From Hadesarchaea archaeon (lineage in GTDB: Archaea; Hadarchaeota; Hadarchaeia; Hadarchaeales; Hadarchaeaceae), in the NCBI GenBank assembly GCA_029259175.1, contig JAPDJH010000002.1, forward strand, positions 96,001 to 160,000: a stretch of 64,000 nt of DNA, in the 5' to 3' direction. Below, piece after piece: positions 45,294 to 49,358 of the stretch. The first letter of the stretch is position 1; each line of letters begins with the position of its first letter. The position numbers and the translations under genes were made by a program. Below the pieces are notes generated by a model, which was not told the origin of the DNA, did no database searches, and saw only the letters and a list, made by a program, of their open reading frames with translations.

Positions 45294-46295
45294 TGAGTTA
45301 AAAAAATGAAAAATCCCGCCGTGCAAAGTGGTGCCCCGGCACCGACGCGAAGGAGAACTTTCGAGCGATTAGTACCGGTGGGCTGAACGCCTCGCCGAAG
45401 CTCGGCGCTTACACCCCCGGCCTATCAACGGGGTCTTCTGGCCCCAGCTCGCGCCCCGACCACCCTTTCGGGCGATCGGAGCAGGGCGCCTAGTCTAGGG
45501 GGCTGCTTCGGCCTTAGATGCTTTCAGGCCTTATCAGCTGGCGCGTGGCTACCCGGCCTGCCCTGTCGGACAGCCGGTACACCAGAGGCGCCGGCCTCCT
45601 GTTCCTCTCGTACTAGGGAGACCTTCCCCGCAGGCGCCCTACGCCCCCGGAAGATAGCATCCGACCTGTCTCGCGACGGTCTAAACCCATCTCACGTTCC
45701 CCTTTAACGGGCGAACAACCCTACCCTTGGCCGCTGCTACACGGCCAGGATGGGAAGAGACGACATCGAGGTAGCAAACCGCGGGGTCGATGGGGACTCT
45801 CGCCCGCGACCACTCTGTTATCCCCGGGGTACCTTTTCTGTCATCCGAGGCCCTCACCAATAGGGCACTCGGGTTCGCTAGGCCCGGCTTTCGCCCCTGC
45901 GAGCCTTGGTAGTGAGCTCGCAGTCAGGCCGGCTTATGGCCTTGCCCTCTACGGCGGATTTCTGACCCGCCTGAGCCGACCTTTGGGCTCCCTTGTTACC
46001 TTTTCGAGGGACTGCCGCCCCAGCGAAACTGCCCACCTGCCGCTGTCCCCACTCCCGAGGAGCGGGTTAGAAACACAGCACCGGATGGGCGGTGTTACAT
46101 TGGCGCCTCCACCGGACCCGGAGGCCCGGCTTCGACGGCTCCCGCCTACGCTCTGCACCCGAGGCCGTGTTCCAACGACAGGCTGCAGTGAAGGTCCACG
46201 GGGTCTTCGCTTCCCTCCGGGGGTCCCCGGCATGTTCTGCCGGCCAGTGGGTTCACCGGGTTCCGGGCTGGGACAGTGGGGGGCTCGTTGATCCC

Positions 46296-46327
<32 letters not shown>

Positions 46328-46332
46328 TTACG

Positions 46333-47034
46333 CTACCTTAAGCGCCCTTCTCTCGCGCGAGAAGGGTGGACCGTATCATCGTCCTCTCTCGAGGACGCCC
46401 GGCGTACGGTCTCTGAGGATCCTCCCTCAACGAGCCTTCGGAGTTTTTCCTTCTTCTCCGGATGGCGGAAACCCACTACTTCTTGAAATCGTCGCACTCG
46501 CTGGAATCCTTTGACCACGAGCGACCACTGTGGGTGCTTTCCCCACCCGCGCGCTTTTTTCACCCGTATCGAACTCTCGATTCCAGCCGTTCTCAGGATT
46601 CGCTGAACCTCTGTGATAACGGGCTTTGCTATCATGTCTATACCGACATAAGGATATGTGTACACCCGCGCGCCGTGAGTCTGGATGTCGATTCCGCAGT
46701 AGCCCTCCGTGTCGAAGAGTCCTCGCACGATTTCGAGTTCCGATTGCTGGTTTCCCAGAAATGCTTTTGGTATCTTGGCGGTTGTCAGCTTCCGGCCCTT
46801 TGGATAGCCGAGCTTGCGTAGCAATCGGTGAATTTCGCGCTGGTTGGAGGTCACCGCCCAGCAATTGGGTGCCACTCGGCGCAGGTTTGGTTTTATTCCA
46901 AAGATTTGCTCCACCAGTTTTCCACACCGTTCCACGAACTCCCGGTTTCGATCTCTGCAGAACACGGTGTAGGAGTTCCCGTACACGCCGCCGTCACCGA
47001 GCATCACTCCGATCAGATAGGCCAGCGATCCCAT
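46333..47034 (-). CDS. Two-motif LAGLIDADG homing endonuclease (intron-encoded)
   Basis: LAYLIGVMLGDGG and IVRGLFDTEG motifs, VGFRHPEK; reads through the ribozyme 3' core and stops in the 3' exon. Confidence 0.93.
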   Translation of the reverse strand: MGSLAYLIGVMLGDGGVYGNSYTVFCRDRNREFVERCGKLVEQIFGIKPNLRRVAPNCWAVTSNQREIHRLLRKLGYPKGRKLTTAKIPKAFLGNQQSELEIVRGLFDTEGYCGIDIQTHGARVYTYPYVGIDMIAKPVITEVQRILRTAGIESSIRVKKARGWGKHPQWSLVVKGFQRVRRFQEVVGFRHPEKKEKLRRLVEGGSSETVRRASSREDDDTVHPSRAREGRLR

Positions 47035-47204
47035 TGTCTCTCTTTAAGAGGGACTTTGTTACTATTTATGGATTTCTCTGGCTCTCGGGAGTTTCCTGCG
47101 GGTCGACCTCATCGAGAACGGACCTTGTTACCTCCAACACGGAGGTAGTCCGTTCCCTATACGTCTTCCCCGCATACAGCCGGGTTTAACGACCCCCTTC
47201 GTCG
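46343..47204 (-). mobile_element. Group I intron (862 nt) in 23S rRNA at the E. coli L1923-equivalent site
   Basis: 5' exon ends in U with P1 GACCCU/GGGGUC (U.G pair); terminal G; P3 CCCGGC/GCCGGG, P4 UGCGGG/CCCGCA, P7 GACCGUA/UACGGUC, R-like UCAGAGACCGUA, S-like GAUGAUACGGUCC, P8 and P9 hairpins. Confidence 0.92.
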
Positions 47205-49358
47205 AGGGTCAGAGTTACCCCCGCCCCTTGGCGGCGCTTCGGCCGGCTGAACCCGGCTTTCACGTACCGCCGGTGGGCAGGATTCAGCTCCCGTACTCAC
47301 CCTTTCGGGCTCGCGGGAACCTACGTTTTTATTAAACAGTCGGCCCCCCCTTGTCACTGCGACCTGCCTCTCGCGAGGCAGGCACCCCTTCTACCGAGGC
47401 TACGGGGCCAACTTGCCGAGTTCCCTAGCCCGGTGTATCCCGACACGCCTTAGGCTTCTCACCCAGGGGCACCTGTGTCGGTTCTAGGTACGGTCACCTG
47501 GGATCCCATTTCCCAGCTCCCTTTTCACGGGCCCTAGGGCTCAGCCGAACCCGCCTTTCGGCAGGCCATTCCCGCCTTCGTCCGGTTCTCTCCGTTACGG
47601 AACTCCCCGGACTTGAGCGGTTAGATGGGGCGACGACCCCACTCGGCCTACCCCGAGGCGTCGGGAGCTAGGCCTTGCGTTGCCGCAGGTACCCAGGTGG
47701 CTCCGGAATATTAACCGGATTCCCTTTTGGGTGCCTCTGGTTGAGGGCACCCTTAGGACCGGCTAACCCTAGGCTGACGACCATTGCCTAGGAACCCGGG
47801 CCCCTTCGGCGGCCGGGATTCTCACCCGGCTCTGCTGTTACTACCGCCAGGATTTTCATTCCGACGCGGTCCACCAGACCTCACGGCCTGGCTTCTCCCC
47901 ACGCCGGACGCCCCCCTACCGGATCGGCCTACTATACTTCGGCCGCCCCGGGGTCTCGGTGGCCGGCTTAGCCCCGAGTATCTTCGGGGCCCCCTCCCTC
48001 GGCGGGTCCGCTGTTACGCGTTGTTTAAAGGATGGCTGCTTCTAAGCCTACCTCCCCGCTGTCTGAGGGAGAGGACGCCCTTTCCGGTAACACTTAGCCG
48101 GCACTTGGGGACCTTAACCCCGGTCTGGGTTTTTCCCCTCTCGGAGCGGGAGCTTACCCCCCGCATCCCGTCTCCGGCGGTCTACGGTGCTGGCGGCTTC
48201 GGAGTTCGACAGGCGAGGCGAGGGTTTCCCCCCGTCACTCGCCAATCGGTGCTCTACACCGCCAGCGACCTCGCGCCGGGCCTGACTGCGGCCAGCTTCG
48301 GGGGGAACCAGCTATCACCGGGCTTGATGGGTCTTTCGCCACTAGCCCGGGGTCATCCGACCGGATTGTACACCAAGACCGGTTCGGCCCTCCACCGAGC
48401 GTACGCTCGGCTTCGGCCTACCCCGGACTAGATCGCCCGGTTTCGGGTCGCCATGCCGTGACTCCGGGCGCTCTTCACACCCGGCCCCTCGCCCTTTCGG
48501 GCTGCGGGCATCTCGCTTTCGCTCCGGCTCCGGGGATCCAACCCCCTTAGCCTCGCCACGGCAAGGCACTCCCTGGCCCGTGATTCCAGACGGACGGCAC
48601 GACCCCGATTGGCCTCCCTCGTACTACCGCCTCGCGGCGGGTTCCTTCGGGAGGTCTCATCTCTTTCGAGCCGTGCCCAACTGTCCCCACCTGGTTTCAG
48701 GCTCTTTTCACCCCCCTTCCGGGGTGCTTTTCAGCTTTCCCTCGCGGTACTGTGTTCGCTATCGGTCTCGGGACGTATTTAGGGTTGGAAGTTGATGCCT
48801 CCCAGCTTCGGACGGCATTTCTAAGCCGCCCTACTCAGGATACCTCTCCTCGTAGCCTGCCCAGTTACGCCTACGGGGCTTTCACCCTCTACGGCGCGGC
48901 GTTCCAGCCGACTTCGGCTTCCCGGGCGAGGCATTGGGAGAGGTCCTACAACCCCACATCCGCACTCGGTTTCCCGAGCGCGTTCGGTTTGCCCTGTGCC
49001 CCTTTCACTCGCCGTTACTCAGGGCATCGCGATTGCTTTCTTTTCCTCCCGGTACTCCGATGTTTCGTTTCCCGGGGTTCCCGCTCGCTGCCGCGAGCGC
49101 CGGGGTATTGCCCCGGCAGGAGGTCCCATTCGGCGATCCCGGGATCAAAGGCTGCATGCGCCTACCCCGGGCGTTTCGCCGCTTGCCGCGACCTTCCTCG
49201 GCGCCCGAGCCGAGCCATCCCCCAGGTGGGTTCCGGTGTTCTCCCACGAGCCGGCACCGGGAACACTGCCTTTGCACGGCGGTCATTTCGCAAATGAGCG
49301 CGATCCGCCTTCAGTACACGAGCTTTCGGGCTCGCGCACCTCATCCCAAGTGGATATG

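Follow-up and report, generated by a model that had tools for sequence, protein, structure and literature searches.

Why should the gene for an intron-encoded homing endonuclease be preceded, between a TATA-like box and its start codon, by a copy of the very exon junction at which its intron sits? The question is raised by a locus in the 23S rRNA gene of Hadesarchaea archaeon (NCBI GenBank assembly GCA_029259175.1, contig JAPDJH010000002.1, positions 96,001 to 160,000 of the forward strand). These 64,000 nt constitute the window that was analysed, and all positions below are numbered within it. The host gene, the intron and the endonuclease gene are arranged as follows.

45350 to 49246, minus strand: 23S rRNA gene, host of the intron (Rfam LSU_rRNA_archaea, 2686.6 bits)
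46343 to 47204, minus strand: group I intron of 862 nt, with C 47204 as its first and G 46343 as its last nucleotide (pairing counts across 26 homologous introns, an invariant terminal G, and a joined form in contigs)
46333 to 47034, minus strand: LAGLIDADG homing endonuclease gene of 233 codons (open reading frame; Pfam LAGLIDADG_3, E 3.2e-16, in two stretches)

The ligated exon sequence, GTAACTCTGACCCTCTTAAGG, taken from the exon ends, agrees with the Rfam archaeal LSU consensus and with uninterrupted 23S genes in nine genomes of the same family, and RNA as well as DNA contigs include a joined form lacking the 862 nt. Having only 22 nt on one side and occurring in a DNA run too, this form may come from intron-less relatives. 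In one sample, contigs covered the intron at a depth of about 3-5 (RNA runs) and 3.5-7.3 (DNA runs), similar enough that DNA carry-over into the RNA runs is possible.

The type of intron determines what a copy of its junction could do, as will be seen below, and was assigned from the following structural elements.

47205 to 47213, minus strand: exon strand of P1, TCTGACCCT, its 3' end being the splice-site U (U.G pair in 26 of 26 introns)
47188 to 47199, minus strand: internal guide sequence (helices 1 and 2, with 90.6% and 96.1% of cells paired)
47087 to 47091, minus strand: 5' strand of P6, CTCCC (helix 7, 96.9% paired, four of five pairs with changes on both sides)
46422 to 46426, minus strand: 3' strand of P6, GGGAG, within the coding sequence (helix 7)
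46369 to 46411, minus strand: ribozyme core under the 3' end of the gene (helices 3, 8 and 9, 100%, 100% and 98.7% paired)
46345 to 46366, minus strand: P9 hairpin, CCCTTCTC/GAGAAGGG, directly before the terminal G (helix 10, six of eight pairs changed on both sides)

Judged from these comparisons, the insert is an IB4-like group I intron at an LSU/1923-type site and most probably not a bulge-helix-bulge intron. Group I rules place the end of exon 1 at U 47205 and the start of exon 2 at C 46342, a shift of 1 nt from the boundary proposed in the first-pass annotation that leaves the ligated sequence unaffected. Within the guide, GGGGTCGTT (47196-47188) forms P1 with exon 1, and AAG (47199-47197) forms P10 with CTT of exon 2. 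One column pair of P1 (20-41) is A-U in 14 and G-C in 12 of the 26 homologous introns, covarying with the exon. The terminal G, which stands before CTTAAGG, is an invariant column in the 26 sequences, while the base preceding it is variable. Individual core segments are P7 GACC (46411-46408), P3' GCCGGG (46403-46398), the P8 hairpin (46397-46380) and P7' GGTC (46372-46369), an order of P3 and P7 that gives the canonical pseudoknot. Across the 26 introns a core model of P3 to P9 in canonical order, comprising 60 pairs, has 93.2% of cells paired; shuffles reached 81.3% (none of 500 attained 93.2%) and slid versions 38-51%, a comparison biased in favour of the model by its having been drawn by eye from this sequence. 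Changes on both sides of a helix were found in P3, P5, P6, P8 and P9, and P4 and P7 are invariant.

The Rfam Intron_gpI model scored below its gathering score at 46348-46479 (14.4 bits against 50, E 0.72). Archaeal introns are described as giving no significant RF00028 match and as needing an IB4 subtype model (Nawrocki, Jones and Eddy 2018, PMC6125680). A bulge-helix-bulge structure was also considered, but 3-nt bulges 4 bp apart could not be placed by eye at the splice sites, and the boundaries are explained by P1, P10 and the terminal G. The intron is a candidate for guanosine self-splicing. It shares insertion site, host gene and the presence of LAGLIDADG genes with the archaeal IB4 LSU/1923 introns of PMC6125680, where homologues of the Caldarchaeales type are listed under that heading; the Caldarchaeales-clade homologues in our comparison belong to the group given there as Aigarchaeota or Thaumarchaeota. 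The table in that paper differs in having no IB4 LSU/1923 intron from Hadarchaeota, and its Results section mentions neither promoters nor junction mimics.

The two P6 strands close the loop L6, which contains the TATA-like box, the junction mimic and the LAGLIDADG gene. The gene begins with the ATG at 47034-47032 and carries two LAGLIDADG motifs, making its product a two-motif monomer, with acidic residues D14, D108 and E110 invariant in seven homologues; the nearest solved chain is 2dch (E 0.0016). Its stop codon, TAG, lies in exon 2, an arrangement also predicted for L003, L004/L022, L023, L025, L039 and L040 from tblastn coverage to query residue 233. Since its own reading frame stops only in exon 2, the excised intron would lack a stop codon, which favours the unspliced transcript as the mRNA. 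Weak matches within long open reading frames (L009-L021) were left out of the comparison, as were L035-L038 (23-28% identity), which have a protein-coding, intein-like context.

The sequence upstream of the start codon is organised as follows.

47063 to 47069, minus strand: TATA-like box ATAAATA, 28 nt before the ATG (sequence, and A/T-box counts in related introns)
47044 to 47061, minus strand: conserved 18-nt block TAACAAAGTCCCTCTTAA, consensus TAACARAGTCCCTCTTAA (per-position conservation in nine non-redundant introns)
47044 to 47055, minus strand: invariant 12-mer AGTCCCTCTTAA
47120 to 47131, minus strand: P5-region sequence GTAACAAGGTCC, repeated directly at 47051-47062 with 11 of 12 identities

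The first-pass annotation had reported that positions 47062-47042 of the minus strand, GTAACAAAGTCCCTCTTAAAG, match the spliced junction at 16 of 21 positions, nine of them contiguous across the insertion point, with ATAAATA directly upstream and the ATG 7 nt further on. All of these positions were confirmed on rechecking, the 7-nt gap being 47041-47035, and a match of at least 16/21 arose in only 3 of 3000 dinucleotide shuffles of the intron, both strands being counted. An exact run of at least nine spanning the junction arose in 94 of 3000 such shuffles, and this figure (about 3%) is the more conservative because the 21-nt frame was picked post hoc. The mimic is in sense orientation, and the sequence CCCTCTTAA lies within the mimic region, inside 47070-47035.

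The secure part of the match to the exons is limited to nine nucleotides, CCCT-CTTAA (the hyphen marks the junction), which form the end of the 12-mer. TAAC also matches and aligns with the TATA-like box in clades that have no mimic. AGT is invariant yet unlike the exon, which has TGA here and TAA in most hosts. The 3' half of a LAGLIDADG site of 20-22 bp is missing, as the sequence 3' of TTAA is neither conserved nor exon-like. The first 12 nt of the 21-mer (47062-47051) repeat 47131-47120 at 11 of 12 positions, so an exon origin is not required for that part. In the 1.3-Mb genome the 12-mer occurs once; its sites with at most one mismatch number four including this one, roughly what chance would give by a rough estimate, and the 9-mer occurs four times against 9.2 expected. 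A single 12-mer and a 9-mer below expectation indicate that this is not a host-wide motif.

The first-pass annotation had suggested looking for the same mimic upstream of homologous genes, and the 12-mer was found to be exact in eight of the nine Hadarchaeota genomes that have this endonuclease. A phylum-wide search of 66 Hadarchaeota genomes, nine with the gene, yielded no further variants. Among distinct upstream regions that bear the mimic the 12-mer is exact in 10 of 11, at loci whose endonucleases are 57-97% identical (median 63%; ten loci compared, the eleventh being too short). Each position of the 18-nt block is kept in six to nine of the nine non-redundant introns, except that A and G alternate at the R position, the commonest base occurring in five of nine, whereas the flanks are kept in only three to six. 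The single variant, G001, reads AGTTCCTCTTCTTAA, which breaks the DNA register and retains the options for RNA pairing. Three sub-lineages whose genes are intact (L040, L043/44 and the L041 group) have lost the mimic or carry it degraded, and it is absent from the homologous introns of the Caldarchaeales clade, which indicates that it is dispensable.

The context of the block is also maintained: in 8 of 11 regions the distance from TTAA to the start codon is 8-10 nt, and the 18-nt block directly adjoins the TATA-like region, a fixed promoter context that suggests a role at the level of DNA. An A/T-rich box (at least six of seven) ending 20-35 nt before the start was found in 25 of 30 introns from all clades and at 94 of 426 control positions (22%); it was counted with this restriction on distance because a plain search for the most A/T-rich window often took TTAAAT of the mimic itself. 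The box studied here starts at -35, on the genome-wide peak of A/T hexamers at -36/-35, and together with its spacing is consistent with a candidate internal promoter for the endonuclease. The first interpretation of the locus stands in that the motif is real and conserved in homologous introns and the TATA-like box recurs; a bulge-helix-bulge intron is not supported.

Taken as a conserved cis-regulatory block in the region of expression control, the mimic probably controls the endonuclease gene. How it would do so is less certain. The likeliest mechanism, though held with less than even confidence, is that the mimic is a DNA operator used for autorepression, by analogy with phage T4 I-TevI. 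In this mechanism the A/T-rich box and TAAC region would form an internal archaeal promoter for a leaderless or short-leader mRNA starting at the ATG or a few nucleotides before it, with the block filling the space between box and start. Of the homing site, the block retains the centre and left-proximal bases (CCCT-CTTAA) but not the right half, so the endonuclease could bind it without cutting, and recruitment of RNA polymerase would be blocked, an autorepression of the kind shown for I-TevI in the phage T4 td group I intron. For this candidate operator we infer promoter activity, binding by the endonuclease, lack of cleavage and repression alike. Monomeric I-AniI, a LAGLIDADG enzyme, reportedly concentrates affinity and specificity in one half-site, and alterations to the other prevent catalysis at no cost in binding (PMC2777416). 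Against an operator, about half of the LAGLIDADG site is missing here, and an I-AniI half-site in isolation is reportedly bound only at about 0.8-4 uM (PMC2777416). Several other observations weigh in the same direction: sense orientation is needed by RNA-based explanations and not by an operator, the G001 variant breaks the DNA register yet keeps the RNA pairing options, the element is dispensable, and it includes both the 11/12 repeat of P5 and an AGT unlike the exon.

Because the intron belongs to group I, its guide sequence is complementary to any sense copy of the junction, and this opens a rival explanation that lay outside the view of the first-pass annotation. The mimic may imitate the ligated exons in RNA, CCCU-CUU pairing with AAGGGGG in the intron through a P1-like CCCU/GGGG helix with a U.G wobble and a P10-like CUU/AAG helix. 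The guide, freed after exon release, would take up the internal copy and so block reverse splicing; alternatively, the terminal G or an external one would cut after CCCU (47049), giving a freed or circular RNA that starts 14 nt before the AUG. Cyclisation at sites paired with the guide sequence is a known reaction of group I introns. The guide is defined here by covariation, CCCUCUU (CCCTCTT of the 12-mer) is exactly complementary to AAG plus GGGG with U.G at the reactive position, the sense orientation of the copy is the one that the model demands, and a guide fixed by the exon would account for an unvarying 5' partner. Even in the sole variant, UUCCUCUU in G001, the C-to-U change still pairs with G, and CUU is kept. 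We nevertheless consider this explanation unlikely. The duplex energies are ordinary (-10 to -12 kcal/mol against -13.4 to -16 for the ligated exons), and the mimic ranks second to fourth among intron sites in four of nine introns, falls outside the top four in the other five and is best in none. Pairing gives a reason for only 7 of the 18 conserved bases and none for TAAC, AGU, AA or the fixed spacing to the TATA-like box, and it would have to be dispensed with in the three sub-lineages and the Caldarchaeales clade, where the element is absent; no joint at 47049/47048 was seen among the contigs, which drop rare forms. Two folding results count neither way: nested folding of the guide/mimic helix had a probability of 0-0.19 in a truncated 5' part, confounded by missing partners of P3 and P6, and with the core helices enforced its probability is 0 by construction, as it would be a pseudoknot.

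A different role in RNA, which appears distinctly improbable to us, would have the mimic form the 5' arm of a hairpin masking the ribosome-binding site, its pyrimidine tract pairing with the SD-like purine tract before the start. The gene would then be silent in pre-rRNA and intron RNA, and transcripts from the internal promoter, starting inside or after the arm, would be translatable, as with T4 td/I-TevI; the likeness to a pyrimidine-rich exon junction would be largely incidental. Such a hairpin is predicted here and in L023, L024, L025, L026, L028 and L040 at -4.9 to -17.5 kcal/mol, and both arms changed together in L028 (8 bp, z -3.9) and L040 (10 bp, z -4.25), although z is weak (-0.7 to -2.3) in five of the seven. 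The 16S 3' end is GAUCACCUCCU, SD-like 4-mers peak genome-wide at -12 to -9, and a regulatory hairpin limits translation of I-TevI according to a review (PMC2988022). However, none is predicted in L003, L022, L027 and L039 (-0.3 to -1.6 kcal/mol, positive z), where the 12-mer is exact. A stem arm need not be invariant, UUAA is conserved though it falls in the loop, and any SD-like tract pairs with a CU-rich one. The element may instead be read by another player, such as a host factor, TFB or RNA polymerase, or the initially melted region, or it may be a relic of descent: a duplicated P5 strand, a duplicated 5' end of the gene, or exon sequence that arrived together with the gene, the origin suggested for T4 sunY/I-TevII. 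The junction likeness would then reflect chance or history, of no present use to endonuclease or ribozyme. That 94 of 3000 shuffles produce the nine-base run is in keeping with this, as are the P5 repeat, the occurrence of ACAGAGTCCCT both in the mimic and at codons 2-5 in L003, L039 and L055, the conservation of AGT with no rationale in exon or guide, and the three losses; flanks of the I-TevII gene within its intron reportedly resemble the exon junction (Loizos et al., via PMC3984707). We think it unlikely all the same, for the 12-mer, with its one genomic copy, does not recur as a host motif, the resemblance forms a single upstream run where that of sunY is divided by the gene, and a neutral copy would not stay identical at about 63% protein identity while its flanks change. 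For the same reason the alternative raised in the first-pass annotation, that the mimic is the scar of the gene's invasion, fails on its own to explain the invariance.

Returning to the operator, its fullest form would have an active archaeal LAGLIDADG endonuclease double as a transcription factor that binds a copy of half-site plus centre in its group I intron, located between the TATA box and the point where a leaderless mRNA begins, and shuts its own promoter without cutting; since the same bases also pair with the ribozyme guide, the 12-mer would couple control of the gene in DNA to control of the intron in RNA. That combination strikes us as somewhat doubtful.

The analogy with I-TevI proved closer than first supposed in that here too the gene lies in a peripheral loop of a group I intron, that of P6. 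According to a review, the I-TevI operator has 15/20 identity to the homing site and overlaps a late promoter (Edgell et al. 2004, via PMC2988022), and is bound like the homing site but cut about 100-fold less (PMC2988022). In both cases, on that description, a sequence like the homing site stands directly upstream of the gene, overlapping or abutting an internal promoter (a candidate one here), and the mimic is without features needed for cleavage (here by sequence only). I-TevI differs in being a GIY-YIG enzyme that binds DNA through a separate domain and cuts remotely, whereas the present enzyme is a monomeric LAGLIDADG protein known from its sequence; against the 15/20 of its operator, the secure match here is 9 nt (16/21 in this intron), in a host with archaeal TATA/BRE promoters. 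T4 sunY/I-TevII also has intron sequence adjoining the endonuclease gene that resembles the exon junction, but there the likeness is reportedly split across the gene and cleavable when fused (Loizos et al. 1994, via PMC3984707), while here it is contiguous, upstream and under purifying selection. WhiA likewise uses a LAGLIDADG scaffold for transcriptional control at its own promoter (a candidate function here), yet is described as a domesticated, nuclease-dead bacterial protein with an additional helix-turn-helix domain and not an active intron-encoded enzyme (PMC3240954).

Cyclisation of the Tetrahymena type and cryptic 5' splice sites share with the mimic an intron pyrimidine tract complementary to the guide, with U.G at the reactive position. 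Cyclisation sites known so far lie near the intron 5' end, and the mimic differs in lying about 155 nt in, in L6 beside the gene start, and in also copying the 3' exon (the P10 part). A search of the mainly open-access literature, main texts only, found no operator or junction mimic for a LAGLIDADG enzyme or an archaeal intron enzyme.

To our knowledge, I-TevI, a phage GIY-YIG nuclease, is the only homing endonuclease for which autorepression has been demonstrated. If the operator reading is true, the present locus would be a second case, with another nuclease fold and in another domain of life, and as an independent case would indicate that selfish endonucleases repeatedly evolve limits on their own dose; it would also be a natural instance of LAGLIDADG binding without cutting, useful for scaffold engineering. 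If instead the mimic acts by pairing with the guide, it would be an internal product mimic, suggesting how group I introns in the rRNA of thermophiles avoid reverse splicing or mature their mRNA. On either reading, the archaeal group I introns reported in 2018 are joined by Hadarchaeota introns with a likely internal archaeal promoter, and a LAGLIDADG gene in an archaeal rRNA intron should no longer be taken to imply the bulge-helix-bulge type.

The genome assembly (1.3 Mb in 23 contigs, completeness 90.9%) places the endonuclease gene in the following setting:

Within the window, minus strand: 16S-tRNA-23S operon
45350-49246, minus strand: 23S gene, with a single large insert that holds an open reading frame
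47034-46333, minus strand: the endonuclease ORF, 233 codons
47091-47087 paired with 46426-46422: helix P6, closing the loop that holds the TATA-like box, the junction-like 21-mer (the mimic) and the gene

The ORF product is a LAGLIDADG_3 protein with two motifs, and its closest solved relative is chain 2dch, a "putative homing endonuclease" (E 0.0016). The frame crosses the 3' splice site and its TAG stop lies in exon 2, 7-9 nt beyond the junction (46333-46343); the intron, once excised, would then carry no stop, consistent with the mRNA being an unspliced transcript. Coverage by tblastn to the last query residue suggests an exon-2 stop also in the homologous loci L003, L004/L022, L023, L025, L039 and L040. 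Ribozyme core helices supply the coding sequence of the ORF's tail, which shows no protein-level conservation, and in the homologues L024, L026 and L028 the ORF ends before P7. In two metagenome introns that lack the mimic, L045 and L046, the first LAGLIDADG motif is LGSGG and not LGDGG (intron alignment A2, columns about 283-291), a substitution that removes the catalytic Asp and may leave their enzyme inactive.

The intron is group I. A bulge-helix-bulge class for the 23S insert was dropped in view of the P1 U.G pair, P10, the terminal G and the paired core helices; with the boundary moved by one ambiguous base, exon 1 ends in U (47205) and the intron in G (46343). The structure was drawn by hand and counted on an alignment of 26 homologous introns, in which 93.2% of 1467 cells were paired, versus 81.3% in shuffles (0/500 reached 93.2%) and 38-51% with partners slid, the slid controls favouring a structure drawn, as this one was, from the window's own sequence. 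The splice-site U.G is present in 26/26 introns, the next variable P1 pair (A-U in 14, G-C in 12) follows the exon, and P3, P5, P6, P8 and P9 show changes on both sides, while P4 and P7 are invariant across the 26. P3 and P7 interleave in the canonical pseudoknot order, and P10 (CUU of exon 2 with AAG) is 96% paired. The gene's 3' end overlaps P6', P7, P3', P8 and P9, and I-TevI is arranged likewise in the td intron of T4, its gene in the P6 loop with its end over the core helices. We take the insertion site to be E. coli position 1923, from an alignment and the table of the 2018 paper cited next. That paper lists IB4 group I introns of archaea, Aigarchaeota among them, at LSU/1923, and LAGLIDADG genes lie in several (Nawrocki, Jones and Eddy 2018, PMC6125680); this kind of intron has been known since 2018. 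The general Rfam group I model scored below threshold on our intron (14.4 bits), as the same paper reports for archaeal introns (PMC6125680).

The first-pass annotation had described minus-strand 47062-47042 as a degenerate copy of the homing site and a candidate autorepression operator. Its letters and coordinates for the mimic, the box and the ATG proved correct on re-reading: 16/21 positions are identical to the ligated exons, 9 of them contiguous, the ATAAATA box occupies 47069-47063, and the ATG follows the 21-mer after a gap of 7 nt. Of 3000 dinucleotide-shuffled versions of the intron, scored on both strands, 3 gave at least 16/21 and 94 an exact run of 9 or more bases across the junction. 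The ligated sequence agrees with the Rfam consensus, with nine uninterrupted 23S genes from the same family, one from a same-genus genome, and with a joined form in contigs that skips exactly 862 nt. That joined form is no proof of splicing in this organism, because it is also in a DNA run and has just 22 nt on one side.

Searches with the protein gave relatives, 51-72% identical over the best segment, in 6 genomes of related organisms, 13 genome records and 20 metagenome contigs, and every relative with a readable upstream flank sits at the same rRNA site. Once identical upstream regions were removed 30 remained, and the motif sought in them recurs: the 12-mer AGTCCCTCTTAA is exact in 10/30, and the related genome G001 is a further bearer with AGTTCCTCTTCTTAA. 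In the phylum sample the gene occurs in 9/66 genomes and the exact 12-mer in 8 of these 9. An alignment anchored on the motif gives an 18-nt conserved block, TAACARAGTCCCTCTTAA, in which each position is shared by 6-9 of the 9 non-redundant sequences (R alternating between A and G), against 3-6 of 9 on either flank; the bearers' proteins are 57-97% identical (median 63%). On the midpoint-rooted protein tree the element is absent from the Caldarchaeales clade (9 rows) and present in 10/18 rows of the other clade, where three sub-lineages that lack it have a degraded, variable homologous stretch. At the least, four changes account for this pattern: a single gain and three losses.

An internal promoter for the endonuclease gene is plausible. 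A window with at least 6/7 A/T has its end 20-35 nt upstream of the start codon in 25/30 introns (30/30 at 5/7), compared with 94/426 control positions inside ORFs; these introns are related and not independent, and the box recurs in every clade. The box-to-start gap is 20-22 nt in all Caldarchaeales cases, the spacing that leaderless transcripts show. A/T-only hexamers in front of 1350 long ORFs of this genome peak at -36/-35, and the intron's ATAAATA begins at -35. In the RNA data, which are assembled contigs, record 13 of metatranscriptome run X7 (730 nt, depth 5.3; window 46404-47103) spans 46404-47100 and joins 47100 to 46404 with 3 extra letters. It has the look of a circular molecule of roughly 700 nt whose ends would lie within the P4' strand and at the P7/P3' boundary, and which would include the box, the mimic and codons 1-210. 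A true RNA circle is one explanation; template switching during reverse transcription and an artefact of the assembly graph are others. Group I introns are expected to form circles through their terminal G, a pattern that this contig does not match.

That the block is a DNA operator read by the endonuclease is the likeliest of four readings, held tentatively and at clearly less than even chances. It resembles the homing site, lies between box and start, at a constant distance from each (in 8/11, TTAA is 8-10 nt ahead of the start codon), and is unique in the genome. I-TevI offers a precedent: its operator, at 15/20 identity to the homing site, overlaps the late promoter, binds the enzyme as well as that site does and is cleaved about 100-fold less (PMC2988022). 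However, the secure exon likeness is only 9 nt, TAAC aligns with the TATA-like box in clades without the mimic, AGT is invariant yet unlike the exon, and 47062-47051 repeats a P5 segment at 11/12. The right half-site is also absent. The asymmetry of I-AniI favours the operator, one half-site carrying binding and the other being read at catalysis, but its half-sites in isolation bind weakly (PMC2777416). It is rather unlikely that the block acts in RNA as a product mimic: its CCCU|CUU is the exact complement of the intron's internal guide sequence, the copy is in sense orientation and the sole variant still pairs, but by duplex energy every intron has equal or better guide-sequence duplexes elsewhere (the mimic ranks 2-4 in 4/9 introns and lower in 5/9), and this pairing makes no use of 11/18 conserved bases. 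The operator and this RNA role are not exclusive, because a sense-strand junction copy in a group I intron automatically pairs with the guide sequence.

Still less probable is a 5' hairpin arm over a Shine-Dalgarno-like tract, predicted in 7 sequences and with both arms changed in L028 and L040, but not predicted in 4 sequences that retain the 12-mer. The block might also be read by another factor or be a product of history, which we regard as rather unlikely, to the same degree as the RNA mimic: a 9-mer arises by chance in 3% of cases, internal repeats are present, and ACAGAGTCCCT recurs at codons 2-5 in L003-type introns, but neutral sequence would not remain invariant. In the window's intron, 47051-47062 (GTAACAAAGTCC) and 47120-47131 (GTAACAAGGTCC) form a direct repeat (11/12), the second copy making up the A-rich internal loop plus the 3' strand of hairpin P5, which all clades conserve. 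L003, L039 and L055 have ACAGAGTCCCT once at the 5' side of the mimic block, some 30 nt ahead of the start codon, and again as codons 2-5 (T-E-S-L), and GAGTCCCT or GAGTCGCT is present twice in L027 and L022; such doubling suggests that the mimic and the 5' end of the gene are linked by a local duplication or by gene conversion. In L056 (A2, columns 95-127) the GGTAACAAAG...GGGATACCCGCGAG segment of the P5 region is duplicated in tandem, which adds about 33 nt to the ribozyme's peripheral domain.

The operator principle is already known for T4 GIY-YIG and HNH enzymes, with one proven and two putative cases. The first-pass annotation knew of no archaeal LAGLIDADG counterpart, and our literature search likewise returned no operator description for a LAGLIDADG enzyme or an archaeon, its sole related match being WhiA, a domesticated LAGLIDADG-fold regulator. 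The case for an endonuclease operator here is one of comparative sequence evidence.

The H69-loop exon sequence of this genome, TCTGA, with guide sequence GTCGTTAAAC (47188-47214), is of the type of the Caldarchaeales introns; TATAA with GTTGTAAAAC is found in G003 (L060), an intron-less genome of the same genus, and in the other Hadarchaeota. The difference hints at exon-flank co-conversion, or at a recombinant intron 5' end after inter-phylum transfer. In genome G015 (L072) the LSU/1923 site is uninterrupted and another insertion begins 8 nt downstream, after CTTAAGGT (around position 105-170); given a GGCTGTATGC core similar to that of our intron, this insertion is probably of group I and of LSU/1931 type. 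Within the family the intron occupies its site in 4/31 genomes (this one, G007, G001 and G041) and the site is uninterrupted in 9 of the 31, one of the same genus, a patchy distribution as expected of a mobile element.
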